Part shown: in pieces, positions 2,314 through 24,063 of the stretch
How positions within the stretch are numbered: position 1 is the first letter of the stretch
Layout: each line of letters starts with the position of its first letter
DNA from: Limnothrix sp. BL-A-16
GTDB lineage: Bacteria > Cyanobacteriota > Cyanobacteriia > CACIAM-69d
Assembly (NCBI GenBank): GCA_041937175.2
Contig: CP166615.1
Span: 3,167,547-3,199,546 of the forward strand
DNA: 32,000 nucleotides
Direction of reading: 5' to 3'
Made by a program: the position numbers and the translations under genes
The notes under the pieces: generated by a model
What the model was told of the DNA's origin: nothing
The model's input: only the letters and a program-made list of their open reading frames with translations
The model's database searches: none

Positions 2314-3531
2314 ATGCAATTTGCCGATCGACTGAAACCGCTGCAATTCAACGTGTTTGCGGCCATGGATCGGGCGAAGGCAGCAGCGGCTGAAACCCAC
2401 GAGATTGTGGATTTATCGCTGGGATCGGTGGACTTGCCCACTTCGCCCCACGTGCTGGCGGCGATCGGGGAAGCGCTTCAGGATCCCAGCACCCACGGCT
2501 ACCAACTCTTTCGCAATACGGCGGCCTTTCGACAGGCGGTGGCCGATCGCTACGAGCGGCAATTTGGCCTGGCGATCGACCCGGAAACGGAAGTGCTAGC
2601 CCTGATTGGCTCCCAGGAAGGAACCGCTCACTTACCCCTGGCGGTTTTAAACCCGGGGGATGTGGCCCTGCTGGGCGATCCGGGCTATCCCTCCCACTAC
2701 GGTGGCGTGCATTTGGCGGGCGGTGAGGTTTATCCCATGCCGCTGTTGGCGCAACATGGCTATTTGCCGCAGTTTGACCAAATTCCGGCGGCCGTGGTCG
2801 ATCGGGCGCGGCTAATGGTGCTGAACTATCCCCACAACCCGACCACAGCGGTGGCTAACCTGGACTTTTTCCGGCGGGCGGTGGCGTTTTGTCAGCAGCA
2901 CGGCATCGTGTTGATTCATGATTTTGCCTACGACGGGATGGCCTTTGGCGATCGCCCGCCGTCGGTGTTGCAAGCGGATCCAGACAAGACGGTTTCGATC
3001 GAGTTTTTCACCCTGTCTAAGGCCTTTAATATGGGCGGCTTTCGGGCGGGCTATGCGATCGGGAACCGCGACTTGATTGCAGCCCTGCGCAGTGTCAAGG
3101 CCGCCGTGGACTTTAACCAATACCAAGGCATTTTCAGGGGGGCGATCGCAGCGCTTCAGGGGCCCCAAGCCGATGTGCAGGAACGGTTAGAAATTTTTCG
3201 CGATCGCCGGGATGCGTTTGTGGCCGCCATGAATCGGATTGGTTGGCCCCTGGAAACGCCCCAAGCAACCATGTTCGCCTGGGCTAAGTTGCCGCCGCCT
3301 TGGGAAAACCAGTCGATCGAATTCTGTAAGCAACTGGTGGCCGCCACGGGCATCGCCGTGGCCCCGGGGGTGGGCTTTGGCCCTTCCGGTGAAGGCTATG
3401 TGCGTTTTGCCCTGGTGCAAACCCCGGAACAGTTGGCGCATTCGGTCGATCGCATTGCCACCTTTTTACAAACCGGCTTGCCAGCCGACCACAAAGGTCA
3501 GGGCCTGTTGTCACTTCCTGGAATCCAGTAA
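2314..3531 (+). CDS. PLP-dependent aminotransferase, class I/II (AspC-like)
   Basis: ATG at 2314 (MQFADRLKPLQFNVFAAMD). Motifs: NYPHNPT, FAYD, and the PLP-lysine motif SKAFNMGGFRAGY. The upstream 21 codons of the track ORF overlap the trx gene end and are rejected. Confidence 0.85.
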   Translation: MQFADRLKPLQFNVFAAMDRAKAAAAETHEIVDLSLGSVDLPTSPHVLAAIGEALQDPSTHGYQLFRNTAAFRQAVADRYERQFGLAIDPETEVLALIGSQEGTAHLPLAVLNPGDVALLGDPGYPSHYGGVHLAGGEVYPMPLLAQHGYLPQFDQIPAAVVDRARLMVLNYPHNPTTAVANLDFFRRAVAFCQQHGIVLIHDFAYDGMAFGDRPPSVLQADPDKTVSIEFFTLSKAFNMGGFRAGYAIGNRDLIAALRSVKAAVDFNQYQGIFRGAIAALQGPQADVQERLEIFRDRRDAFVAAMNRIGWPLETPQATMFAWAKLPPPWENQSIEFCKQLVAATGIAVAPGVGFGPSGEGYVRFALVQTPEQLAHSVDRIATFLQTGLPADHKGQGLLSLPGIQ

Positions 3532-3554
3532 AAACGGCTGATCTTCCATACCCT

Positions 3555-3642
3555 AACCACCCTAGACAAGGAGCTTAAGCCCCTTGCCCCTACGATCCAA
3601 CCACCCTAGACAAGGGGCTTAAGCCCCTTGCCCTTACGATCC
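3555..3642. repeat. Two tandem 44-bp repeats (42/44 identical), each with a palindromic core
   Basis: Copies at 3555-3598 and 3599-3642 read AACCACCCTAGACAAGG(A/G)GCTTAAGCCCCTTGCCC(C/T)TACGATCC. Copy 2 contains the perfect 20-bp palindrome CAAGGGGCTTAAGCCCCTTG at 3611-3630. Confidence 0.8.
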
Positions 3643-3772
3643 GCCAACGGTGGAATAAGGGTTTCAGGCGATATGACGACAAGCCCTAATCACTGCAAAG
3701 GTTAGTCACCACAAAGGTTAATCAACGGCTGAATGATTGCTGAAAGGCAGATTAACCTTTTGCCCTCAGTCC

Positions 3773-4945
3773 CTACCAAGGATTGCTGAAAGTGCGCACC
3801 GGTCGCCCGCCGATGTTGGATTGGGATGGCTGCGTCACCGGTTCCGGAGCCACGGCCGGTTGGCTGGGCGGCGGGGCGATCGCGGGGCTGTTGGGAACCG
3901 TGTTGTAACCGGCGTTTAAGGGTACACCGGAACCCGTGGAGCCATAGCCTGGCATCGGAGCCGTTGGGATTTTGGGCAAAGTGCTGCCCGCCGTTGCCGG
4001 GCCGGAGCCATAGCTGGGATAGCCCGTGGGACTGCCAAAGCCGCCATAGTTCACATTGCCGGCCCCAGCATTGGGAACCGCCACATTCGGCAGTGTGGGA
4101 TTGGTTGTGCCGCTGCCGATGGTGGGAGTTGTGCCGCTGGAACCCGTGACGGGAACCGTGGGCGTTGTGGTGTTGGTGCTGCTGCTGGGGGTTGTGCCGC
4201 TGGAATCGCTGCTGCCATCACCATTGTTCAGGTAGAGGCGATCGAGCGCCGCTTGCAGGGGACTCACGGGCTGGCCGGTGGTTGTTCCATTGCCATTGAG
4301 CATGGTCGAGCTGCCTCCCACACCGTAGCTGCTGCCATTGGCATTGGCGGCCCGAGGGTCATTGCTCAAAAATTGATTCACCGCCCTTGGGGCCAAACCA
4401 CTGCCCTCGCCACCGCGCGATCGACTGCCCACGGGGCCCGCCGAACCACCACTGAGCAACTGCAAAATATCCGCTAGCTCAGAGTTGGCGTTGTTCGCCG
4501 TTTTTTCTTCATCCTGGCGATCGCGTTTATTGCGATTGTTCCGGCGCTGGTTTTGGGGCAGGGTTAGCTCCGTTGCCAACACATTAGACGAGTCAATATC
4601 AGCCGCCACCGAATCATCATCGGGCTGAGACTCCAGAATCGAGAGCCAATCTACCTTGTCCGGCTCAGGTTCGGCATTAGTCCAGCGATCGGGATTTTTC
4701 CAAAACACCCAAGCCCCCAAGGTTGCCATCGAAATCGCCATGGCCGGCAACCAGATGAAGGGTTCGCCCAACCAGCGCAGATTTCTGAGCACCAGCGTTA
4801 GGCTGAAGGTTTCGCGCAATTGCGACACCCAACCCTCATGGGTTCCTGGCTCATGGGTTCCTGAGTGCGCCTTGTGGCCGTGATGACCCGCCGGGTGATG
4901 ACTCGATGGGTGATGGCCCGATGAGTGATGGTGATGCTCGGACAT
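3773..4945 (-). CDS. Hypothetical single-pass membrane protein with a His-rich N-tail and a Gly/Ser/Thr/Pro-rich low-complexity C-terminal region
   Basis: The N-terminus MSEHHHHSSGHHPSSHHPAGHHGHKAHSGTHEPGTHEGW has about 15 His in 40 residues. One hydrophobic helix follows (FIWLPAMAISMATLGAWVFW), then about 300 aa of low complexity. An alternative GTG start lies at 4957. No family recognised. Confidence 0.6.
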   Translation of the reverse strand: MSEHHHHSSGHHPSSHHPAGHHGHKAHSGTHEPGTHEGWVSQLRETFSLTLVLRNLRWLGEPFIWLPAMAISMATLGAWVFWKNPDRWTNAEPEPDKVDWLSILESQPDDDSVAADIDSSNVLATELTLPQNQRRNNRNKRDRQDEEKTANNANSELADILQLLSGGSAGPVGSRSRGGEGSGLAPRAVNQFLSNDPRAANANGSSYGVGGSSTMLNGNGTTTGQPVSPLQAALDRLYLNNGDGSSDSSGTTPSSSTNTTTPTVPVTGSSGTTPTIGSGTTNPTLPNVAVPNAGAGNVNYGGFGSPTGYPSYGSGPATAGSTLPKIPTAPMPGYGSTGSGVPLNAGYNTVPNSPAIAPPPSQPAVAPEPVTQPSQSNIGGRPVRTFSNPW

Positions 4946-5291
4946 AGTTAGGGTCACCAGAGCAGGATCAGAGAGTGGTTGGAGAGCGGGTCGGGGCTGG
5001 GGAGGCTGAACGAGAGCCGCTGGACGGAGACAGGGTAGAAGCGAGCGAAACCCCTAGACGAGAACGAGCCTTGGAGCGATGGCTCATTTTTAGGTAACAA
5101 TTGCTGCTTCCATTCTATCGGGTCTGGCAACCCTGAAGCCAGGGCCTACCCCCAACGCCTGGGGCCCGCCCCCTGAAATTCGCCAGTACCCAAACGGAGA
5201 ACCGACACCAGCGATCGCCCCAAACGGCCCAACCTTGGTTTAGGGTGGCTTCTGGCTAATCAGTTGCCGGGATTCCCGAAAGGTTTGTTGG

Positions 5292-9770: not shown

Positions 9771-12700
9771 ATGGACGAGCAACGACTTCAGGCTTATTTG
9801 CAATTGATTCAGCAGTTGTTGGCTTGTCCGGCGGGGGAAGAGGAAAGCGTTTTGCAAGCCCAGGTGGAGTTGGTGGATGCGGGGCTGGTGGAGGTGATGG
9901 GACAGGTAGCTGACCTAATGGTGGAAAAAGGAGACAACAACGCCGGCCGATTGCGACAGTTTTCTGAGCAGGTGGCGCAGGCGTTGGGGCTGGAGTCAGC
10001 GACGGCGAGTGGTGCGGAGGATATGGATCAGTTTGTGGGGGAGGTGATGGAGCAGATTCTCCAAACCCAAGGCAATCCAGCGCAGGTTTATGGGTTTTGG
10101 CAGGTCGATTTAAATCGATTTAACGAAGCATTTTTGGCAACGCTGCCTATCACTTTTCGCCGCTTGATCGGGCAAAATGACCCCAAACTAATTGCGGCTA
10201 TCTTTGCTAGGTTTGGAAACTTGATTCAACAATTTCCAATCGGTTCGCATTGGTTGAATCTGGAATGTGCAATTACGGTCTACGAACAGGCGCTGATGAT
10301 CTACACCTGCGAAGCGCTTCTCGAAGATTGGGCCATGACCCAAAACAACCTGGCAACTGCTTACAGCAATCGAATCCGAGGGGAGAAGGCGGACAACCTA
10401 GAACTAGCGATCACCGCCTACAAACGGGCGCTGGAAGTCCTCACCCGCGATGCTTGTCCTGAAAATTGGGCAGGGACTCAAAACAATCTGGCCAATGCTT
10501 ACAGCAATCGAATTCGAGGGGAGCGGGCGGACAACCTAGAACTAGCAATCACCGCCTACAAACGGGCGCTGGAAGTCTACACCCGCGATACTTTTCCTGA
10601 AAATTGGGCCATGACTCAAAACAACCTGGGAGAAGCTTACCGCTCTCGAATCCGAGGGGAGAAGGCGGACAACCTAGAACTAGCGATCACCGCCTACAAA
10701 CGGGCACTGGAAGTCAGAACTCGCGATGCTTTTCCCAAAGATTGGGCAGGGACTCAAAACAATCTAGCCAATGGTTACGGTGCTCGAATCCGAGGGGAAC
10801 GGGCGGACAACTTAGAACTAGCGATCACCGCTTACAAACGAGCGCTGGAAGTCTACACCCGCGATACTTTTCCTGAAAATTGGGCCATGACCCAAAACAA
10901 CTTAGCAACTGCCTACAGCAATCGAATCTGCGGGGAACGGGCGGATAACCTAGAACTAGCGATCACCGCTTACAAACGAGCGCTGGAAGTCCGTACCCGC
11001 GAGGCGTTTCCTGAAGCTTGGGCAGCGACCCAAAACAACCTGGCAAATGCTTACAGCGATCGCATCAGAGGAGAACGGGCGCACAACCTAGAACAAGCGA
11101 TCACCGCTTACGAACGGGCGCTGGAAGTCTACACCCGCAATGCTTTTCCCGAAAATTGGGCCATGACCCAAAACAACCTGGGAGAAGCTTATCGCGATCG
11201 CATCCGAGGGGAGCGGGCAGACAACCTGGAGCGAGCAATCATCGCTTGCGAACGGGCGCTGGAAGTCTATGCCCGCGATACTTTTCCACAAAATTGGGCC
11301 ATGACCCAAAACAACTTAGCAACTGCCTACAGCAATCGAATCTGCGGGGAGCGGGCGGACAACCTAGAACTAGCGATCACTGCCTACAAACGGGCGCTGG
11401 AAATCTACACCCGCAATGCTTTTCCACAAGATTGGGCAGGGACTCAAAATAACCTGGCAAATGCTTACGTCGCTCGTATCCAAGGGGAACGGGCAGATAA
11501 CCTGGAGCAGTCGATCGCCGCCTACAAACGGGCGCTGGAAGTCTACACCCATGATGCTTTTCCTGAACAATGGGCAATGACCCAAAACAACCTGGCAAAT
11601 ACTTACAGCCAGAGAATTCGAGGGGAACGGGCGGACAACCCGGAACGGGCGATCACTGCTTACGAACAGGCGCTGGAAGTCCGCACCCGCGAGGCGTTTC
11701 CCGAAGATTGGGCAGCGACCCAAAACAACCTAGCAATTGCTTACCGCGATCGCATCCGAGGGGAACGGGCGGATAACCTCGAACAAGCGATCGCTGCCTA
11801 CGAACGGGCGCTGGAAGTCTTCACCCGCGAGGCCTTTCCGAATGACTGTCGCCGTACTTCTCGATCGCTCGGCGATCTTCAAAGCGAGTTGCAAAACTGG
11901 GATGCTGCGACCCAAGCCTATGGGCAAGCCCTCGCCGCTGCGGAAGATCTCTACCAAGCCTGCACCCTGCTCGACAGCCAAGCCGGTGAGCTAAAAGCAA
12001 CCGCCAACCTGCCCCGCCGCGCCGCCTATGCCTACGCCAAAGCCAGTCAACTCGCCACAGCCCTCGAAACGATCGAACGGGGCCGCGCCCGGGGCCTCAG
12101 CGAACGACTCCAACGCGATCGCGCTGACCTCGCACAACTCCAACAACAGCGCCCTGACCTGTTCGATCGCTACCGCGACATCACCAACCAACTGCAAAAC
12201 CTGGAAAGCCAACAACGCGACCAGCAAGTCCGCGATCGCCAAGCCATCACCCCCGAACAACACCGCAACGAAGCCCAAAGACTCCGCCAGGAATTGACCG
12301 AGGCGATCGCCCAAATTCGCCAAGTCCCCGGCTATGAAACCTTCCTGCAAGCACCCAGCCTCACCGAAATTCAACAAAACCTCAGCACCGAAGCACCCAC
12401 CGTCTACCTGATCCCCACCCCCAACGGCAGCCTCGCCCTAATCGCCACGCCCCAGGCGATCGCCCCCCTGTGGCTCGATGATTTCCCCGAAGCCACCCTC
12501 ACCGACTTGGTGCAAACCTGGCTCCAGGCTGACAGAGAGTCCAAAGTGGCTAACTATGAGTACAGTAAAGACCCGGAATCACTAGCCAAGATGCAGACCC
12601 GAAATGAAAAGCGGGAGCAGTGGCACAACGCGATCGACCAGGGAACCCGCCAACTGTGGGACAACCTAATGGCTCCCCTAATCGATCGGCTCAAACAACA

Positions 12701-13553
12701 CAACCACACCCAAGCGATCCTGATTCCCACCGGCTTGCTCGGATTGTTGCCCCTCCATGCCGCCTGGACAGAAGACCCCAGCCGCCCCACCGGCCGCCGC
12801 TACGCCCTCGATGAGCTGACCTTCACCTACGCCCCCAACGCCCAATCCCTCGTGGCCGCCCGGGCGGTGGCGGATGCCTTGCGGAGCAATATCGCCCAAC
12901 AATTCCCCGACAGCCACCTCGATTCGATCCTGGCGATCGACAATCCCCGCCAAGACCTGCCCAGCTCCGAACGGGAAGTCACGGCCGCCGTCAAAACCTT
13001 CCCCCACCCCACCGTCCTGCGCCACGAAAAAGCCACCACCGCAACCGTTGCCGACAACCTGGGTCAACAGGCGATCGTCCATTTCTCCTGCCACGGAACC
13101 GCCAACTTCAACGAACCCCTCAACAGCGGCCTGCTAATGAGCGATGACCTGTTGACCCTGCGCGAGCTATTTAACCTCAAGCTCACCGAAGGCAACAAAC
13201 GCGGCATCCGGCTCGCCGTCCTCTCCGCCTGCGAAACGGGACTCCCCGGCCTGGACTTAGCCGACGAGGCGATCGGCTTGCCCGTCGGACTGTTGCAAGC
13301 AGGCGTGGCCGGGGCGATCGCCTCGCTCTGGGCCGTGAGCGACCTCAGCACCATGATTCTGCTCACCAAGTTCTACGACCTCTGGCGCAACGATCGCCTC
13401 ACCCCACCCGCAGCCCTCCGCCAAGCCCAACAATGGCTCCGCAACGCGACCCTTTCCGAAATTCGCCAGCTCACCGGCATCAGTTTCCGAGGCGCTGAAC
13501 ACCCATTTGCCCACCCCTACTACTGGGCAGGCTTCAGCTACACCGGCATATAA
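9771..13553 (+). CDS. TPR-repeat / CHAT-domain (caspase-like peptidase) protein
   Basis: 1260 aa. It has the cyanobacterial-type N-terminus (RLQAYLQLIQQLLACPAGEEESVL), then 12 x 46-aa TPR-like repeats, then a coiled-coil linker. The C-terminal CHAT domain keeps the catalytic dyad contexts HFSCHG (His codon 13092-13094) and LSACETG (Cys codon 13230-13232). Confidence 0.9.
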   Translation: MDEQRLQAYLQLIQQLLACPAGEEESVLQAQVELVDAGLVEVMGQVADLMVEKGDNNAGRLRQFSEQVAQALGLESATASGAEDMDQFVGEVMEQILQTQGNPAQVYGFWQVDLNRFNEAFLATLPITFRRLIGQNDPKLIAAIFARFGNLIQQFPIGSHWLNLECAITVYEQALMIYTCEALLEDWAMTQNNLATAYSNRIRGEKADNLELAITAYKRALEVLTRDACPENWAGTQNNLANAYSNRIRGERADNLELAITAYKRALEVYTRDTFPENWAMTQNNLGEAYRSRIRGEKADNLELAITAYKRALEVRTRDAFPKDWAGTQNNLANGYGARIRGERADNLELAITAYKRALEVYTRDTFPENWAMTQNNLATAYSNRICGERADNLELAITAYKRALEVRTREAFPEAWAATQNNLANAYSDRIRGERAHNLEQAITAYERALEVYTRNAFPENWAMTQNNLGEAYRDRIRGERADNLERAIIACERALEVYARDTFPQNWAMTQNNLATAYSNRICGERADNLELAITAYKRALEIYTRNAFPQDWAGTQNNLANAYVARIQGERADNLEQSIAAYKRALEVYTHDAFPEQWAMTQNNLANTYSQRIRGERADNPERAITAYEQALEVRTREAFPEDWAATQNNLAIAYRDRIRGERADNLEQAIAAYERALEVFTREAFPNDCRRTSRSLGDLQSELQNWDAATQAYGQALAAAEDLYQACTLLDSQAGELKATANLPRRAAYAYAKASQLATALETIERGRARGLSERLQRDRADLAQLQQQRPDLFDRYRDITNQLQNLESQQRDQQVRDRQAITPEQHRNEAQRLRQELTEAIAQIRQVPGYETFLQAPSLTEIQQNLSTEAPTVYLIPTPNGSLALIATPQAIAPLWLDDFPEATLTDLVQTWLQADRESKVANYEYSKDPESLAKMQTRNEKREQWHNAIDQGTRQLWDNLMAPLIDRLKQHNHTQAILIPTGLLGLLPLHAAWTEDPSRPTGRRYALDELTFTYAPNAQSLVAARAVADALRSNIAQQFPDSHLDSILAIDNPRQDLPSSEREVTAAVKTFPHPTVLRHEKATTATVADNLGQQAIVHFSCHGTANFNEPLNSGLLMSDDLLTLRELFNLKLTEGNKRGIRLAVLSACETGLPGLDLADEAIGLPVGLLQAGVAGAIASLWAVSDLSTMILLTKFYDLWRNDRLTPPAALRQAQQWLRNATLSEIRQLTGISFRGAEHPFAHPYYWAGFSYTGI
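10251..11906 (+). repeat. 12 in-frame tandem 138-bp (46-aa) coding repeats inside the CHAT gene
   Basis: The unit is ADNLELAITAYKRALEV.TRD.FPENWA.TQNNLANAYSNRIRGER. Unit starts fall exactly every 138 bp (10251, 10389, 10527 ... 11769). Several units are near-identical at the DNA level. Confidence 0.9.
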
Positions 13554-17283: not shown

Positions 17284-18780
17284 CTAGCTCAGATGCGATC
17301 GCACCACGGCCGCCAGGCGATCGGCCCAGTGGCGCACCAAATCTGCTTCGGCCGCTTCCACCATCACCCGAATCACCGGCTCCGTTCCCGAAGCCCGCAC
17401 CAAAATCCGGCCCGCATCGCCCATTTGGGTTTCCGCCTGGGCGATCGCCTCGGCCACCGGGGCGCAATCTTGCCAGCCCAACCGGCGCGCGCGATCCTCA
17501 ACCCGCACGTTTTCCAGCAGTTGCGGGTATTTCTGGAAGCTGTCATCCACCCAGGCCGCGAGCGATCGCCCGGACTGCTTCACCAGGGCCGCCAGGTGCA
17601 GCGCCACCAACGTGCCATCGCCACTAACCGCGTAGTGGCGGCAAAGGATGTGACCCGACTGCTCACCGCCGAGCATGTAGCCCCGATCAAGCATCGCCTT
17701 TTGCACGTATTGATCGCCCACGGCCGTGCGAATCAGGTTGCCACCTTGTTTTTGCCAAGCCCGCTCAAAGCCCAGGTTCGCCATCACCGTCGAAACGATC
17801 GTCGCTTCCGGCAGCTTGTCGCTCGATCGCAGGGTTTGCCCCCAGAAATAAAGGATGTAGTCACCATCGACCACGCGCCCCTTGCCATCCACCGCCAACA
17901 CCCGATCGGCATCCCCATCAAAGGCAAACCCGAGATCCGCTTGATGTTCAACAACAGCCGCCTTCAGGGACTCTAAGTGAGTGGAACCGCAGTTCACATT
18001 AATTCGATCGCCGTCCGGTTCCCCGTGCAACACGATCACCGCTGCGCCCAACTCCTCAAACACCGCTGGGGCCACCTTGGCGCTCGCGCCCCAAGCCGTA
18101 TCCAACACCACCTTCAAACCCGCCAACGGGCGATCGCCCCAGCCCTCTTGCTCCAGGGTTTGCTCCAAGGACACCGCATAGCCGCGCACCAACTCGGGCC
18201 GGAAATAGCCCCGGCCGCAACCGGTCACGGGTTCCAAGCCGGGTAGAACATGGTGGCGCAAGGCCGATTCAATTTGTTGTTGGGCTTCTTTGGCCAGCTT
18301 GTGCCCATCGGGGCCGAAGAACTTCAAGCCGTTGTCGCCGGGCGGGTTGTGGCTGGCGGAAATCATCGCGCCCCCGATCGCCCCGGTCGCTTCGACTAAA
18401 TAGGCCACACAGGGAGTCGGGCACAAGCCCACATTCCACACCTCCAGCCCGGCCGCCGTCAGCCCCGCCGTCAGGGCCGCCGCCAACATTTCGCTGGAGT
18501 TGCGGGAATCTTGGCCCACGACGATCGCCCCGTTGCCCGATCGGGCCGCAAACACGCGCCCGGCCCAGTAGCCCACATGCAGCGCCAAGCTGGCGGTCAA
18601 CACCTCGCCCACGCGCCCGCGAATCCCGTCGGTTCCAAACAGGGGCACGCTTTCGGGAATTTCCAGGGGCGACAACCCATGCAGATTCAGGTTCAAGCTT
18701 GGTTGCTCCAAATCCTGGGGTTTTTGGTTCAACCCAAGTTCGCCCGATTCGCGACCCAACCGAACAGGAGACGTAACCAT
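17284..18780 (-). CDS. glmM: Phosphoglucosamine mutase
   Basis: LFGTDGIRG, the active-site serine loop [15 protein letters not shown], the DGDADR metal loop and the GEQSGH sugar loop are all present. ATG at 18780 gives the roughly 45-aa N-terminal extension usual in cyanobacterial GlmM. The track start at 18864 is rejected. Confidence 0.9.
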
Positions 18781-18973
18781 AATTGCGCTCACTCCACACC
18801 AAGGGTTTGTGTTGCTTTCCACACCAAATCGATCTTGCATCCGCACGATCGACATAGTTCGCAACTCGCCTGAAGGATAGCACGGGCCGATCGAGGGGGT
18901 CGATCGCCCCGGATACCATGGCGGGGTCTGGGGGAGTGAGTAAACTTAAAGCAGATGTGAGGAGCGATCGCCC

Positions 18974-19471
18974 ATGTTTGACCAAAACGAGTTAGCCAAT
19001 CTTGAGAAAAATATCAAGCGCCTTAAGCAGCAGTTAGCGGGCAAACGCGACACCCTGGTCACGATCGCTTCAGACGAAAAAGTACGGATTCGGCAGCAAA
19101 TTGAAGATCTACGCTCCGAGATCAACGGCTTGGAGCGGGAATATTGGGAACTGCTGCATCAGCGATCGATCAGCTTTGAGCCGTCGGAGGATGAAGCTGA
19201 ACCGATCGTGGCGGAATGGGTTGAGAAAGCCAATCAGTTAGAGACGAATCCGCCCGCCAACGTGCCTGCTGAGATTTTGCAGCAGGTGCAGGCGGTGGCC
19301 AAACGGTTGGATCAGCCGGGTCAATCGGCTGCGATCAAGGTGAAGGGGATGATTTCGGCGTTGCCACCATTTTTCTCGGTGGGCATTGAGACCGAATTGG
19401 ATGTGGCGGGATTTGTAAAAGGCAATTTCCCCACTTTTTGGAACTGGGCGGCGGCACTCGCAAAAAAGTAG
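18974..19471 (+). CDS. Hypothetical coiled-coil protein; possible detached or frameshift-linked N-terminal module of the downstream STAND NTPase
   Basis: 165 aa. GAGGAG lies 9 nt upstream of the ATG. The N-terminal heptad region is LEKNIKRLKQQLAGKRDTLVTIASDEKVRIRQQIEDLRSEINGLEREYWELL. The C-terminal aromatic/hydrophobic segment is ISALPPFFSVGIETELDVAGFVKGNFPTFWNWAAAL. The ORF ends ...GCA AAA AAG TAG. Confidence 0.65.
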   Translation: MFDQNELANLEKNIKRLKQQLAGKRDTLVTIASDEKVRIRQQIEDLRSEINGLEREYWELLHQRSISFEPSEDEAEPIVAEWVEKANQLETNPPANVPAEILQQVQAVAKRLDQPGQSAAIKVKGMISALPPFFSVGIETELDVAGFVKGNFPTFWNWAAALAKK

Positions 19472-21573
19472 ATGGCCCGGTTCCAACGCCGGGCCAAGAA
19501 CCGCCGACAAATTTGCAGGATCGGGGGGTCGATCGCGATCGCTTCTTTGGACGCGATGACGTATTGCAGGATTTGCACGATCGGTTGGGGCGATCGGATC
19601 GGGTGGCGGTGACGAGTGTGGCGGGCATGGGCGGCGTGGGCAAAAGTGAGCTGGCGGTGCAGTATGCGCGGTGGCGGCTGCGGGAGGGGGACTATCGCGG
19701 CGGGGTGGTGTGGCTGGCGGGGGAACGGGCGGGGATTGAGCTATTGGGGTTTGCGAAGGCGCAGTTTTTCCCGGATGTGGATTTGGCGCAGTTAGGCGAT
19801 TTACGCGAACAGTTGACGTTTATTTGGTCGCGTTGGCCGGTGCCTGAGGTTCCGCCGGAGTCGGTGCTGTTGGTGTTTGATGATGTGACGGATTACCGAT
19901 CGCAGGTGGCGGATCTGTTGCCGAGTGACAAGCGGTTTCGGGCGATCGTCACGACGCGGGAGCAGATCCAGGGGATCGATCGGTTGGATTTGGCGGTGCT
20001 GGCTCCGGCGGCTGCGTTGGACTTGTTGCGATCAATCGTTGGGGAAGCGCGGATCGCGGCGGAACCGGAGACGGCGAGCGAGATCTGTGAATGGCTGGGC
20101 TTTTTGCCGTTGGGTTTGGAGTTGGTGGGCTATTATCTCCAGCGCAAGCCGAATCTGTCGCTGGCAAAGCTGCTGGAACGGTTGAATGAGAAGCGTTTGG
20201 CGGCGAGGGCGTTAATCGATGTGCCGGTGACGCTGACGGCACAGCGGGGGGTCGCGGCGGCGTTTGAGTTGAGTTGGGAGGCGATCGGCGCGCAGGAGTG
20301 GGGCGAGTCGGCGCAGGCGTTGGCGATGCGGCTGAGTCTGTTTGCGGCGGCTCCGATTCCGTGGGGCTTGATGCAGGACTGTTGGGCGGCGGCGGATGAG
20401 GAGGAGTTGGAGGATTGGCGCGATGGGTTAGTGGCGTTGCATCTGATTGAGGATGTCACCGGGGAGCGCTATCGGTTGCATCCGCTGATTCGGGAGTTTT
20501 TTGCAGCGAAGTTGGCGGCGCGGGCGGAGGCGACAGCCTGGCGGACGGCGTTTGCGGTGACGTTGACGAAGATTGCGAGAACAATTCCGCAGACTGTGAC
20601 GCTGGAACAGCAAGCCCAGGTGCGCGAGGCAATGCCCCATCTGGAAGCCGCGACGGATTATTGCGACCTACTGAGCGATGATGATTGCGGCTGGCCGTTC
20701 ACTGGTTTAGCCCGGTTTTACGAAGCCCAAGGCCTGTTCGAGGATGCCGAGCGTTGCTCTCAGCATTGCCTCGATATGCGCGAAACCCGCTTCGGAGCCG
20801 ACCACCCTGATACCGCCACCAGCCTCAACAATTTGGCGGCATTGTATGAATCGCAAGGGAAATACGATCGCGCCGAACCGCTCTACCAACGCGCCTTAGA
20901 CATCAGAGAACAGCAACTGGGAGCCGACCCCCCCGCTACCGCCACCAGCCTCAACAATTTGGCGGGATTGTACCGATCACAAGGGAAATACGATCACGCC
21001 GAACCGCTCTTGCAACGCGCCTTAGCGATCAGGGAACGGCAACTGGGAGCCGACCACCCCCATACCGCCAGCAGCCTCAACAATTTGGCGCTTTTGTATA
21101 AATCGCAAGGGAAATACGATCGCGCCGAACCGCTCTACCAACGCGCCTTAGCGATCTATGAACGGCAACTGGGAGCCGACCACCCCAATACCGCCAGCAG
21201 CCTCAACAATTTGGCGCTTTTGTATAAATCGCAAGGGAAATACGATCGCGCCGAACCGCTCTACCAAAGCGCCTTAGACATCAGAGAACGGCAACTGGGA
21301 GCCGACCACCCCGATACCGCCGCCAGCCTCAACAATTTGGCGGTGCTGTATTTCTATCAAAATCGCTGGGGCGAGGCGGAGCGGTTGCTGGTGCGGGCGC
21401 TGCTGATTTGGGCGCAGGTGTTGGGCGAAGCGCATCCCGACACGCAAAGCTCGATTCAAAGCTTGTTCAGCCTAATCGGTGCAGCCCTGAACCAGGGACG
21501 CGCCGCCGAACTCTCCGACCACCCCGTCACCCAATCCATCCTGCAACAACTCACCACCCCACCCAACCCGTAG
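19438..21573 (+). CDS. NB-ARC (STAND P-loop NTPase) protein with C-terminal kinesin-light-chain-type TPR repeats
   Basis: The Walker A motif GMGGVGKS lies at 19624-19647, preceded by FFGRDDVLQDLHDRL. The Walker B context is LLVFDDV, followed by a helical/winged-helix region and then 42-aa TPR units. The 5' end is uncertain. The frame is open from 19390, with no ATG before the P-loop and only TTG candidates (19438, 19513) without an SD. See the frameshift finding. Confidence 0.85.
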   Translation: MELGGGTRKKVDGPVPTPGQEPPTNLQDRGVDRDRFFGRDDVLQDLHDRLGRSDRVAVTSVAGMGGVGKSELAVQYARWRLREGDYRGGVVWLAGERAGIELLGFAKAQFFPDVDLAQLGDLREQLTFIWSRWPVPEVPPESVLLVFDDVTDYRSQVADLLPSDKRFRAIVTTREQIQGIDRLDLAVLAPAAALDLLRSIVGEARIAAEPETASEICEWLGFLPLGLELVGYYLQRKPNLSLAKLLERLNEKRLAARALIDVPVTLTAQRGVAAAFELSWEAIGAQEWGESAQALAMRLSLFAAAPIPWGLMQDCWAAADEEELEDWRDGLVALHLIEDVTGERYRLHPLIREFFAAKLAARAEATAWRTAFAVTLTKIARTIPQTVTLEQQAQVREAMPHLEAATDYCDLLSDDDCGWPFTGLARFYEAQGLFEDAERCSQHCLDMRETRFGADHPDTATSLNNLAALYESQGKYDRAEPLYQRALDIREQQLGADPPATATSLNNLAGLYRSQGKYDHAEPLLQRALAIRERQLGADHPHTASSLNNLALLYKSQGKYDRAEPLYQRALAIYERQLGADHPNTASSLNNLALLYKSQGKYDRAEPLYQSALDIRERQLGADHPDTAASLNNLAVLYFYQNRWGEAERLLVRALLIWAQVLGEAHPDTQSSIQSLFSLIGAALNQGRAAELSDHPVTQSILQQLTTPPNP
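19462..19495 (+). promoter_or_regulatory. Candidate -1 programmed ribosomal frameshift cassette (slippery heptamer + stem-loop)
   Basis: A_AAA_AAG (19462-19468) is in the zero frame of the upstream ORF, immediately before its TAG (19469-19471). After a 5-nt spacer comes the hairpin GGCCCGG (19474-19480), loop TTCCAACG, CCGGGCC (19489-19495). The -1 frame is the NB-ARC reading frame. Confidence 0.4.
20794..21423 (+). repeat. 5 in-frame tandem 126-bp (42-aa) TPR coding repeats, plus degenerate flanking units
   Basis: The unit is GADHP.TA.SLNNLA.LY.SQGKYDRAEPLYQRAL.I.E.QL. Unit starts fall at 20794, 20920, 21046, 21172 and 21298. Units 3 and 4 are almost identical at the DNA level. Confidence 0.9.
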
Positions 21574-21578
21574 GGGCG

Positions 21579-21675
21579 CATCGCCATGCGCCCTCCGATA
21601 CGCGAGATCTCCGCAAACCAATTCGTGGCAACCGATCGACCCGGTTGGAGGGCGTACAGCGGTACGCCCCTACCC
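21579..21675. repeat. 97-bp dispersed repeat, copy A (two internal GC-rich hairpins)
   Basis: CATCGCCATGCGCCCTCCGATACGCGAGATCTCCGCAAACCAATTCGT...GACCCGGTTGGAGGGCGTACAGCGGTACGCCCCTACCC. Hairpins are GGGCGCAT-CGCC-ATGCGCCC and GGGCGTAC-AGCG-GTACGCCC. It matches copy B except for an 11-bp central patch and a few point differences. Confidence 0.8.
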
Positions 21676-21809
21676 GATCGCCCTTCCCGCCAAAAACCGG
21701 ATCGCAATCCCGAGGGGCGATCGACGGTGCGTGGGAGACAAACCCGCCAAACCATTACCCCGTAAGCGTTCTCCCACACACCCTACCCGTCGGCCATTGA
21801 TGCGGGAAC

Positions 21810-22142
21810 ATGGACAAAATGAACTACCCCCAACTGGTGCAACAGGCCCTCGACTATCACCACCAACACAGCCAAACCAGCAGCGACCTAGAAACCCACG
21901 CCATCTATGACCAACAACGCGATCGCTACCAACTGTTGCGATTTGGCTGGCAGGGGAGCGATCGCACCTTTGCCTGTGTGGCCTACGTGACGATCGAAAA
22001 CGGCAAAATCTGGATTCACCGCGACTTCACCGAACCCGGCATCGCCCATCAACTGCTCGAACAAGGCATCCCCAAAACCGATATCGTCCTGGCTTTTCAC
22101 GCCCCCAACCTGCGCCCCTACACCGAATTCGCGATCGGTTAA
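21810..22142 (+). CDS. xisI: XisI-family protein (orphan, no adjacent xisH)
   Basis: 110 aa. DQQRDRYQLLRFGWQGSDRTFACVAYVTIENGKIWIHRDFTEPGIAHQLLEQGIPKTDIVLAF aligns with the XisI at 8095-8430. Confidence 0.8.
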   Translation: MDKMNYPQLVQQALDYHHQHSQTSSDLETHAIYDQQRDRYQLLRFGWQGSDRTFACVAYVTIENGKIWIHRDFTEPGIAHQLLEQGIPKTDIVLAFHAPNLRPYTEFAIG

Positions 22143-22209
22143 CCCCCTCGCTGGGGGAACCCGATCGCCCCCTGATCGTCGCCAAAACCGACCAATTCCC
22201 GTCGGGACA

Positions 22210-22306
22210 CATCGCCATGCGCCCTCCGATCCGCGAGATCTCCACAAACCAATTCGTTTCCATGGATTGACCCGGTTGGCGGGCGTACGGCGGTACGCCC
22301 CTACCC
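22210..22306. repeat. 97-bp dispersed repeat, copy B (same orientation as copy A)
   Basis: CATCGCCATGCGCCCTCCGATCCGCGAGATCTCCACAAACCAATTCGT...GACCCGGTTGGCGGGCGTACGGCGGTACGCCCCTACCC. It ends 12 nt before the stop of the convergent GH57 gene. Confidence 0.8.
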
Positions 22307-22318
22307 GGCGCGGGGTGA

Positions 22319-23908
22319 TTACAACGGGCGATAGACGCGGTAATTCACGTTGGGGAAGATATTGTCGATCGCCTCCACCTTTTGCAGCCAGCCCGAATCC
22401 ACCTTGCCCGCGCGAATATCGTCGTAGAGCTTCGTGAACCGCATCATGTGCGATCGCGTCCGGCGCACCGCGTAGGGAACCATCGTTCCCGTCCGCATAA
22501 TGAACGCCCAGTCCGACGACTGCGCCAACAGTAATTCCCGCGCCGCTTGATTCAGGGCCCGCCACTCCAGCTCATCGGCCGGCTCCAGTTTGGATAGCTC
22601 GATCATCCGTTCCGCACCCTTGTGCAGGTGCGGATAAATCCAAGCGTTGGTGTCATTCAGCCAATATTCATGGAAGCCCTTATAGCCCCAGCTCGATTGG
22701 GACGGGCGACAAACTTGCTGGGTCGGCTGTTTCTGCAAATAATCCGACAGGTGGGTCATCTGGAAAGTGTTTTGGTCAAACCAAGACTTCCGGAACAGGA
22801 AATCCAGGAACCAGGGGCCTTCGTACCACCAGTGCCCAAACAGCTCCGCATCGTAGGGCGACACCACGATCGGGGGGCGCTGCATCAACCCATTCAGATA
22901 GGAAACCTGTTGGCTGCGGTTGAACATGAAGTTGGTGGCATGTTCCGCCGCCTTTTCCCGCGCCCAGTAGGGATCGTAGAGCGCCTTATCGGACAGGCCC
23001 GCCGTCCGGCTGGTGATTTTGTGGTATTTGATGCCCACATTTTTTCGTTGGCCGTTGGGCATGATGTAGGGCTTGATGTAGTCGTAGTCCGCTTCCCAGC
23101 CGATGTCTTTGTAAAACTCTCGGTATTCGGCCGCGCCGGGATAGCCCACTTCGGAAGACCATACCTGTTGCGAAGATTCGTGGTCGCGGCCAAAGGCGGC
23201 CACCCCGGCTTCCGTGAAAATGGGCGAATAGGTACCGAAGCGGGGGCGCGGCCGGGCGTACAAAATCCCGTGGCCATCGGTGAGGAAGTAGCGCAGGCCG
23301 GCATCGGCCACCATCCGTTCCAGGCCTTCGTAGTAGGCGCATTCGGGCAGCCAAATGCCTTTGGGGGCGCGGCCGAAGTTTTCTTCGTAGTGGTCAACGG
23401 CCACTTTCAGTTGGGCCCACACGGCTTGGGGATACATCTTCATCAGGGGCAAATAGCCGTGGGTGGCCCCGCAGGTGATGATGTCGATGTTGCCGGAGTC
23501 TTGGAATTTCTTGAAGGCGGTGACGAGATCGCGATCGTACCGTTCCCAAAGTTCCCGCACTTCCTGGAATTCTTTGATGTAGTGCTCGGCCAGGTAGCGC
23601 AGGTGGCCGTTGAATTCGTTGTGGACGTATTCTTTTTCGACGAGTTCTTGCAACTGAGCGAGGTGCTGATCGTAGCGGTCTTGCAAGAGGGGGTCGCGGA
23701 GCATGGACACCAGGGGCGGGGTCATGCTCATGGTGATTTTGAAGTCTACGCCATCGCGCTCGAGTCCTTCAAAGGCGCGTAACAGGGGGACGTAGGTTTC
23801 GGTGATGGCTTCGTAGAGCCACTCTTCCTCTAGAACGTAGTCGCTTTCGGGGTGCCGGACGAAGGGCAGGTGAGCGTGCAGGACGAGGGCGACATAGCCA
23901 AGGGTCAT
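22319..23908 (-). CDS. Glycoside hydrolase family 57 protein (1,4-alpha-glucan branching enzyme type)
   Basis: MTLGYVALVLHAHLPFVRHPE..., WLPECAY and other GH57 blocks are present, at about 529 aa. ATG at 23908 is preferred over the TTG at 23929. Confidence 0.9.
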   Translation of the reverse strand: MTLGYVALVLHAHLPFVRHPESDYVLEEEWLYEAITETYVPLLRAFEGLERDGVDFKITMSMTPPLVSMLRDPLLQDRYDQHLAQLQELVEKEYVHNEFNGHLRYLAEHYIKEFQEVRELWERYDRDLVTAFKKFQDSGNIDIITCGATHGYLPLMKMYPQAVWAQLKVAVDHYEENFGRAPKGIWLPECAYYEGLERMVADAGLRYFLTDGHGILYARPRPRFGTYSPIFTEAGVAAFGRDHESSQQVWSSEVGYPGAAEYREFYKDIGWEADYDYIKPYIMPNGQRKNVGIKYHKITSRTAGLSDKALYDPYWAREKAAEHATNFMFNRSQQVSYLNGLMQRPPIVVSPYDAELFGHWWYEGPWFLDFLFRKSWFDQNTFQMTHLSDYLQKQPTQQVCRPSQSSWGYKGFHEYWLNDTNAWIYPHLHKGAERMIELSKLEPADELEWRALNQAARELLLAQSSDWAFIMRTGTMVPYAVRRTRSHMMRFTKLYDDIRAGKVDSGWLQKVEAIDNIFPNVNYRVYRPL

Positions 23909-24063
23909 AGCAATTGTCCTAGAGCGCAATTAATAAGGCTGAGGCGATCGCTCGTGGGATCGCCCTGGCCGGATCGGCGTAAAGCTTGGCTTAAGCTTTA
24001 GCAGATTTTAAGGCGAAGTGCGACCGGGGGTAGGTCGTGAATTTGACCAGATGTTGGGCAATC

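Follow-up and report, generated by a model that had tools for sequence, protein, structure and literature searches.

How a large NTPase gene without a convincing start codon comes to be translated is the question raised by a locus of the cyanobacterium Limnothrix sp. BL-A-16, contained in a 32,000-nucleotide (nt) stretch of contig CP166615.1 (positions 3,167,547 to 3,199,546; hereafter the window, to whose numbering coordinates refer unless another locus is named). On its plus strand, an open reading frame (ORF) at 18974-19471, from the ATG start through the stop codon, encodes a 165-amino-acid (aa) all-helical module, and a long ORF for a STAND NTPase overlaps its end in the -1 frame. We consider it likely that the two are joined by programmed -1 ribosomal frameshifting at a slippery site of the A_AAA_AAG (dnaX/IS911) type, which would yield both the 165-aa module and an 866-aa fusion from a single gene. 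Recoding signals, conservation of the module and its slippery site as a cassette, dependence of the -1 ORF on entry from upstream and in-frame fusions in relatives are all documented in the sequences compared below.

The zero-frame ORF, whose product under standard decoding is the 165-aa module, is preceded by a Shine-Dalgarno (SD)-like GAGGAG at 18959-18964, 9 nt before its ATG, and ends GCA AAA AAG TAG. Its protein matches the NCBI hypothetical protein ACAF42_13440 of Limnothrix sp. BL-A-16 at 100% identity. The slippery heptamer A_AAA_AAG occupies 19462-19468 in the zero-frame X_XXY_YYZ register, with its A6 tract at 19462-19467, and the zero-frame UAG stop follows directly at 19469-19471. 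The -1 frame is open from 19390 to 21573, reading ..KKVDGPVPTPGQEPPTNLQDR.., and from the heptamer onward it reads KKVDGPVPTPGQEPPTNLQDRGVDRDRFFGRD... before continuing into the NTPase and repeat regions; its portion between the slip site and the TAG that closes it (19462-21573), together with 18974-19468, encodes the predicted 866-aa trans-frame fusion. In that product ...AAALAKK would be followed by VDGPVPTPGQ, with 701 codons beyond the slip, and the predicted junction peptide is ALAKKVDGPVPTPGQEPPTNLQDR, which can also be written (ALAKK)VDGPVPTPGQEPPTNLQDR.

Beyond the junction lies a P/T/G-rich linker, VDGPVPTPGQEPPTNL (19468-19515, -1 frame), which in the alignment ends in the P-x-N-L motif that opens the STAND core. 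It is followed in the same frame by an NB-ARC-type STAND NTPase module (19540-20662; Pfam NB-ARC, E 2e-11, and AAA_16), with the P-loop GMGGVGKS at 19624-19647, and by a TPR_10/TPR_12 repeat array (20704-21453; Pfam TPR_12, E 3.7e-84; TPR_10, E 5.8e-84) that is presumed to be the sensor part. The ORF thus has the NB-ARC domain with P-loop and the subsequent repeat array of a STAND NTPase of the NB-ARC clade with a TPR sensor, and its 676 homologues at E<=1e-10 are mostly cyanobacterial NB-ARC-TPR proteins. A preliminary description of the locus, made from the sequence alone, had reported the GCA AAA AAG TAG ending with the heptamer in register, the -1-frame NB-ARC/TPR ORF open from 19390, the GAGGAG ahead of the small ORF, and the lack of both an ATG before the P-loop and an SD sequence before the TTG candidates; all of this was borne out, the first ATG lying inside the P-loop itself. 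It had also described a 7-base-pair (bp) all-G/C stem behind the heptamer, which is present and which ViennaRNA extends to 9 bp.

By number alone the heptamer is unremarkable, with 6 occurrences of A_AAA_AAG in the window against 7.7 expected, so its significance must come from comparison with relatives. The comparison comprised 66 loci (L-numbers below; P-numbers are proteins or protein clusters) from scans of genome and metagenome contigs, isolate and complete genomes among them, and these span Limnothrix, Microcystis, Coleofasciculaceae, Symploca, Leptolyngbyaceae, Merismopediaceae, Pseudanabaena, Phormidium, Lyngbya and others. The 42 distinct intact module genes that they contain fall into 15 clusters below 80% nucleotide identity. 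Twelve of the 15 clusters end NNA AAA AAG in register, with GCA, CTA or TTA preceding the lysines, and variants include one cluster with A_AAA_AAA (L024) and one with A9G, in TTA AAA AAA AAG (L022). The zero-frame stop comes 0 or 1 codon past the heptamer in every heptamer-bearing locus, and in all heptamer lineages a long ORF of 300-827 codons follows, without exception in the -1 and not the +1 frame. Among 15 lineage representatives with less than 85% nucleotide identity, the heptamer is invariant and no other 7-nt window of the gene is; the longest other invariant run is 3 nt, a Trp codon, and third-position identity averages 0.55. From the codon usage of the module genes (AAA for 55% and AAG for 45% of Lys, GCA for 28% of Ala, A-ending codons for 39% of Leu), the chance of finding the heptamer given an A/L-K-K peptide is 0.07-0.095 per lineage, a figure from which exact p-values should not be taken literally because the lineages are related. 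The contrast with the saturated neighbouring synonymous sites is clear, and at the sequence level the heptamer is conserved beyond the needs of the protein.

Two module genes provide natural controls. L014, ending GCG AAA AAG TGA, and L021, with a different and longer C-terminus, lack the heptamer, and both lack a long -1 ORF. The L045 contig carries tandem module genes (218-866 and 1352-1829 of that contig), only the second of which has the heptamer, and L024 carries an enlarged module ORF (3515-4462 of that locus, 315 codons) with an extra coiled-coil segment and the A7 form of the heptamer. The ortholog comparison that the preliminary description had proposed therefore finds the heptamer conserved across diverse cyanobacteria, together with its register, the stop beside it and the -1 ORF; it is this conservation that takes the evidence beyond chance and clearly favours that description's suggestion of a dnaX-type -1 frameshift linking the 165-aa ORF to the NB-ARC/TPR ORF.

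The recurrence of the arrangement also makes it hardly credible that the split arose from a mistake in sequencing or assembly, or that the locus is a pseudogene left by a recent frameshift in a once-fused gene. Homopolymer runs are error-prone and the window comes from a single assembly, but the arrangement recurs in dozens of independent assemblies, isolate and complete genomes among them. It is seen in the chromosome of Microcystis ichthyoblabe FBCC-A1114 and in Coleofasciculus sp. H7-2, the protein occurs in Acaryochloris marina NIES-2412, and both ORFs are intact and conserved as proteins. Conservation in the 66 loci and in 71 protein clusters of the module (92-243 aa), recovered in a word-indexed protein search, rules out an assembly error or an A7 fusion.

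A further feature looked for at such a site is a stimulator, here taken as a 3' hairpin or pseudoknot 4-9 nt downstream and/or a 5' SD-like tract, and the window contains a candidate. ViennaRNA predicted a putative stimulatory hairpin at 19473-19496, with a 9-bp stem (19473-19481/19488-19496), a 6-nt loop and a 4-nt spacer from the heptamer; the core of the stem is formed by 7 G-C pairs, GGCCCGG (19474-19480) with CCGGGCC (19489-19495). Its dG is -18.6 kcal/mol (z = -3.34; 0/200 dinucleotide shuffles fold as well), and the region ranks in the lowest 1.5% among local 42-nt windows. An SD-like tract upstream of the heptamer is absent in the window. For 17 lineage representatives we compared the best 42-nt fold starting 2-6 nt past the heptamer with windows along the same genes: the downstream fold was in the lowest 10% in 11 of the 17 and in the lowest 5% in six (Fisher p 1.6e-6), and an upstream SD-like tract was in the lowest 10% in seven (p 1.6e-4), although the combined p-values overstate independence, the lineages being related. 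At least one stimulator was present in 12 of the 17.

Strong anti-SD pairing by a purine tract 6-20 nt before the heptamer (e.g., AAGGAGG or GGGGAGG) was found in L006, L011, L012, L015, L024 and L037, that is, in the subgroup whose modules end ...RLKK, Microcystis included, plus L024 and L037. The anti-SD duplex measures -9.6 to -15 kcal/mol in L006, L011, L012 and L015 and is weaker in L024 (-8.6 kcal/mol) and L037 (-7.7 kcal/mol). Microcystis thus has an SD-like tract without a hairpin and the window a hairpin without a tract, and the lineages seem to use different stimulators. Hairpin sequences are unlike between lineages. Within the Limnothrix group, both arms of the stem either stay unchanged or undergo C-to-U changes that keep a G.U pair despite a Pro-to-Leu substitution, while the loop varies freely. 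On this comparative evidence a hairpin is supported for the Limnothrix group and most other lineages, not for all.

Read on the minus strand, the hairpin and the A/T-run might instead form an intrinsic terminator, and a pattern scan does score such a site, with the stem 19496-19473 followed by TCTACTTTTT. We rejected this reading, which we judge very unlikely, on spacing and context: the T-run stands 5 nt off the stem, no minus-strand gene ends there, the site lies inside plus-strand coding sequence, and other lineages keep the heptamer with very different hairpins or none. No known RNA family was found at the site, Rfam returning only a chance snoRNA match (E 0.2).

The stimulators and the exact form of the slippery site also bear on whether slippage would occur during transcription. 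RNA polymerase could slip on the A-run and add an extra A to some transcripts, or the run could vary in phase at the DNA level; the site is a homopolymeric run, and the longer runs of L024 (A7) and L022 (A9) could allow realignment as in Thermus dnaX (cited in PMC3711429). The same study cites n>7 for efficient A-run slippage in bacteria and measured 10% frameshifting at A7, so that the A6 tract falls short of the lengths at which efficient slippage is known. Were transcriptional slippage selected for, longer A-runs would be expected, and AAA-AAA would serve the protein equally well, whereas neither the G at position 7 nor the exact X_XXY_YYZ register varies. The downstream hairpins and SD-like tracts are ribosomal stimulators, and no A7 in-frame fused allele turned up in the 71 close clusters or the 66 loci. 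We regard transcriptional slippage and phase variation as distinctly unlikely, and we infer that the slippage is ribosomal, not transcriptional, and frequent enough to be useful in these organisms. The one-base error and the A-tract phase variation that the preliminary description had offered as alternatives are ruled out as the main explanation by the conservation of the site and by the lack of any plain in-frame fusion among the 71 close clusters.

If ribosomes enter the STAND ORF by shifting, it should have no good start of its own. An upstream start is excluded in most lineages, where a stop closes the -1 frame 3 codons ahead of the heptamer, and no locus has an ATG with an SD sequence ahead of the P-loop in the -1 ORF. 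The first ATG, GTG or TTG of the -1 ORF comes at codon +26 in L001, +47 in L009, +62 in L010 and +61 in L040. In the window, the first start candidate past the slip site is a TTG at codon +17, downstream of P-x-N-L, and the first ATG is at codon +55, within the P-loop, the earlier candidates being TTGs without an SD. The peptide ahead of these start candidates is conserved both among the frameshift-entered ORFs and with conventionally started paralogous NB-ARC-TPR proteins, and includes the P-x-N-L...F-x-G-R motif and, in the NACHT group, SQEKLLQAV. In the alignment the Pro of P-x-N-L is invariant in the frameshift-entered ORFs as well as in in-frame relatives with other N-terminal domains. 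Conventional paralogues place 40-90 residues of PF19954, PF19959, PF19961 or CHAT before the motif; judged by this alignment, the -1 ORF is "headless" precisely where its relatives attach an N-terminal domain.

Several points weigh against frameshifting, beyond the relatedness of the lineages that inflates the stimulator statistics. The NACHT-linked subgroup (L002, L010, L032) has neither a hairpin nor an SD-like element, and, as regards function, structure and family searches with the module gave no significant match beyond a sub-threshold one to EAD9. At the window locus taken alone, moreover, an independent start is possible in principle on sequence grounds: a TTG at codon -8 (19438) could serve as the STAND start and is used as such by gene callers (P0072), and it is the caveat to our finding that the -1 ORF, which would be entered at the slip site, lacks a credible start of its own. 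One could then see two ordinary neighbouring genes, with the STAND protein starting at a weak TTG or GTG (19438 or 19513) and the KK kept for protein reasons. Gene callers annotate the genes in this way (P0001, P0072), a TTG or GTG occurs at codons -8/-6 of the -1 frame in the Limnothrix group, and weak or missing SD sequences are common in cyanobacteria.

Examination of the other loci makes separate genes unlikely. The TTG and GTG of the Limnothrix group are a product of conserved zero-frame FPTF[W/C] codons and have no SD; we rejected an independent start at 19438 as a by-product of the FPTFW codons that is missing in most lineages, where the -1-frame stop stands instead. The downstream candidates lie in conserved sequence or beside the P-loop, a KK protein motif does not account for the codon-level invariance of NNA-AAA-AAG, the frame relation is invariably -1, and the heptamer-less L014 and L021 have no downstream ORF. 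The inefficient TTG start that the preliminary description had considered is therefore not general across lineages. Termination-reinitiation was also rejected: no -1-frame start codon lies by the stop, and the ATG at 19472 belongs to the zero frame, where it begins no more than a short ORF.

What the predicted shift gives access to differs from lineage to lineage. The -1 ORF encodes NB-ARC plus TPR of several subtypes (the window, L001, L015, L039, L045, L049, L024), NB-ARC plus DUF7779 (L004), NACHT (L002, L010, L036 and relatives), an nSTAND5-like nSTAND5/AAA_16 protein (L022), a P-loop with TPR and no NB-ARC match (L028), TPR only (L040), a transmembrane segment plus TPR (L012), or one of two unknown types (L008, L037). 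All of these ORFs open with KKV or KK after the slip. The cassette is constant, and it has been combined with several unrelated STAND or TPR partners. In Microcystis, "long" and "short" loci part in sequence ~60 nt past the heptamer, and this breakpoint just past the linker suggests partner-swapping recombination. Five Microcystis loci (L020, L042, L050, L053 and L059), in which the -1 ORF is cut to 34 codons and the heptamer is intact, were considered as counter-examples and set aside as secondary disruptions by a ParE-toxin ORF inserted ahead of a surviving NB-ARC ORF; in L042, the locus examined, the ParE-toxin ORF (3850-4116 of that locus) lies between the module gene and the remaining NB-ARC ORF (4189-5133).

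Protein searches approached the same partnership from the module. None of the 71 module clusters is fused to an NTPase, and nearly all full-length ones end ...[A/V/L]KK. An exhaustive HMMER profile search against 1.84 billion representatives returned 278 relatives. In 126 representatives the module is present in its C-terminal part, and 115 of them end there (tail <=20 aa); KK occurs in the last 8 residues of 75 of these 115, and of 52 of the 57 in the closer half, compared with 1 of 120 control NB-ARC proteins. The other 11 of the 126 continue in frame past the module. Among these, three distant relatives have the module at the N-terminus: P0270 joins it to nSTAND1 (E 4e-123), P0276 to a P-loop NTPase (AAA_16, with weak nSTAND1 matches) and TPR, and P0235 to a transmembrane segment and TPR. 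P0255 joins it to a GUN4-like domain. In paralogous NB-ARC-TPR proteins, other effector-associated domains (EADs) or CHAT stand at the position of the module. At the level of sequence, these Rosetta-stone fusions show that the module serves as an N-terminal domain of STAND proteins, as it would in the trans-frame product.

The searches also recovered modules that stand behind other domains: TRADD-N (P0207), a helicase-like region (P0192) and an unknown 500-aa region (P0200). P0207 and P0200 still end ...LAKK(S) (P0207 ...KALAKKS), and P0192 ends ...LAKR. In the Limnothrix-group relatives P0002, P0008 and P0010, the module ORF is extended upstream by an N-terminal motif, MSD..QQGIIANDQ.TVNIG.., with which the module-free paralogous NB-ARC-TPR proteins P0073, P0075 and P0082 also begin; in the window, the frame matching this extension is closed by a TAA at 18947.

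We were also curious what the 165-aa module might be. An AlphaFold2 model built from 22 sequences (predicted local distance difference test score 88.7, predicted template modelling score 0.80) is all-helical, its 8 helices comprising a long helical hairpin over residues 3-67 and then six shorter helices. An EAD9-like helical-hairpin segment (residues 4-56; 18983-19141, plus strand) matches Pfam PF19962 with 20.3 bits (E 4.7e-4), under the gathering score of 25; EAD9 matches at E<0.01 occur in 10 of the 22 family members, the best at 9.2e-5, and P0002 has a precomputed PF19962 match. A Foldseek search of the model against the PDB gave nothing significant, the best hit being closed ESCRT-III CdvB (E 0.31, template modelling score 0.42), a PDB profile search gave nothing better than E 0.017, and Pfam matches to PspA/IM30 and coiled coils were sub-threshold. 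The resemblance to ESCRT-III/PspA is only a lead. PADLOC had no match for the module and only generic TPR matches for the STAND protein, with none of the characterised anti-phage STAND systems (Avs etc.) represented. A tblastn search found no second copy of the module in the window. Since structure and family searches gave nothing significant, the function that we propose for the module derives from architecture. EADs have been described as small helical adaptors, with one copy on a core NTPase and another on a partner, and the copies were proposed to pair homotypically (Kaur et al. 2020, PMC7159879).

On this basis, translation of the window locus may proceed as follows. Ribosomes would initiate at the ATG at 18974, and the majority would stop at the UAG behind the heptamer, releasing the free 165-aa module. 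A fraction, held up at the 9-bp G/C hairpin that begins 4 nt further on, would slip from AAA-AAG to AAA-AAA, take GUA as the next codon and translate the 701 further codons. The resulting 866-aa product, in the order module, P-rich linker, NB-ARC NTPase and TPR array, would be an NLR-like sensor with the module in the N-terminal adaptor or effector position, and the free module would be made in excess from the same mRNA. When the STAND protein oligomerises, free module could join, or be nucleated by, the sensor-borne copies through homotypic contacts, on the EAD principle (Kaur et al. 2020), and the efficiency of frameshifting would set the sensor:adaptor ratio. This adaptor and nucleation model, with its idea of a fixed ratio, is an inference.

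A more speculative extension, which we put forward tentatively and hold to be possible but not probable, is that the module and its slippery site form a portable recoding cassette able to make any downstream STAND or NLR-like sensor a two-product gene, with an abundant free adaptor or effector and a rare sensor-borne nucleator. Such a cassette would correspond, in bacteria and on one mRNA, to NLR-nucleated adaptor polymerisation (ASC, death-fold filaments), and its frameshifting efficiency would set the threshold of an immune or cell-death trigger, or tune it under stress or phage-induced translational perturbation.

The proposed arrangement has parallels in several known systems. E. coli dnaX (tau/gamma) has the same heptamer in the same register, a downstream G/C hairpin to which that of the window is similar in spacing, and two N-terminally coincident products from one mRNA; its upstream SD-like element has counterparts in some relatives and is missing in the window. 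In dnaX, however, the shift gives the shorter product, a -1 stop being met almost at once, whereas here the shift would give the long product and standard decoding the short one, and the proteins are unrelated. E. coli lacks tRNA-Lys(CUU), which makes AAG shifty. The transposase frames OrfA/OrfAB of the IS3 family of insertion sequences (IS911/IS150) also have A_AAA_AAG close to where a short first ORF ends, and a -1 shift there adds on a long second ORF without an efficient start of its own; an N-terminal interaction domain is common to the short product and the fusion, and the short product modulates the long one. Unlike these, the window locus is not a mobile element, having no transposase and no terminal inverted repeats, and it is STAND NTPases and TPR arrays that follow downstream. 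The phage tail chaperones G/GT and retroviral Gag/Gag-Pol likewise shift near the end of an abundant ORF to make a minor fusion at a set ratio, but their slippery sequences differ and they serve viral assembly, while the window has a chromosomal gene of conflict-system type.

The proteins themselves resemble those of the EAD-coupled STAND or NLR-like conflict systems of multicellular bacteria (Kaur et al. 2020). These too have a small non-enzymatic helical domain N-terminal to a STAND core, a constant module with rapidly varying partners and a cyanobacterial distribution, to which the weak EAD9 match may be added. They also have a further copy of the domain, free or effector-linked and usually adjacent, for which homotypic pairing with the first is expected; the predicted free module would correspond to it. 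In EAD systems the two copies come from separate genes, whereas both would come here from one cistron by recoding, and frameshifting is not mentioned in that study. Effector-linked copies have been described for EADs; no module attached to an enzymatic effector was found among the 71 clusters or in the exhaustive HMMER search.

Full-text literature searches found no report that combines frameshifting with STAND, NACHT, NB-ARC, effector-associated domains, anti-phage defense or cyanobacteria, absence there not being proof. A review of recoding (PMC5009743) contains nothing relevant on STAND, NTPase or cyanobacteria, and the GeneTack survey with its supplements (PMC3711429) does not mention the family, its text being without TPR, NB-ARC and ATPase. 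Slippage itself is a classical mechanism; what appears to be new is a recoding cassette that is linked to NLR-like sensors and shuffled among them. Accepted chromosomal users of -1 frameshifting in bacteria are a handful (dnaX, copA, csoS2, cdd and chlD, plus insertion sequences and phages), and the signal described here is conserved in many cyanobacterial genera, bloom-forming Microcystis too, and accompanies an adaptor-like module that has no fewer than three different NTPase clades among its partners. If frameshifting is confirmed, many "headless" STAND genes and "hypothetical 165-aa proteins" would be mis-annotated halves of one gene, the stoichiometry of sensor and adaptor in a prokaryotic NLR-like system would have a testable model, and synthetic biology would gain a natural cyanobacterial frameshift cassette.

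The locus is flanked by housekeeping genes on the minus strand, for phosphoglucomutase (17284-18864) and a GH57 branching enzyme (22319-23929), and no tRNA genes occur in the window. Six kb upstream, a plus-strand gene of conflict-system type (9771-13553) encodes a 1260-aa protein with TPR and a caspase-like CHAT domain. Downstream, a 110-nt direct repeat (21567-21676 and 22198-22307, 88% identity) flanks xisI (21810-22142); its first copy starts at the STAND stop codon, and each copy has 27-nt inverted arms, resembling a miniature inverted-repeat transposable element or a palindromic one. Several copies of the palindrome GCGATCGC, known as the HIP1 repeat of cyanobacteria, stand in 18800-19800 and 21400-22400.

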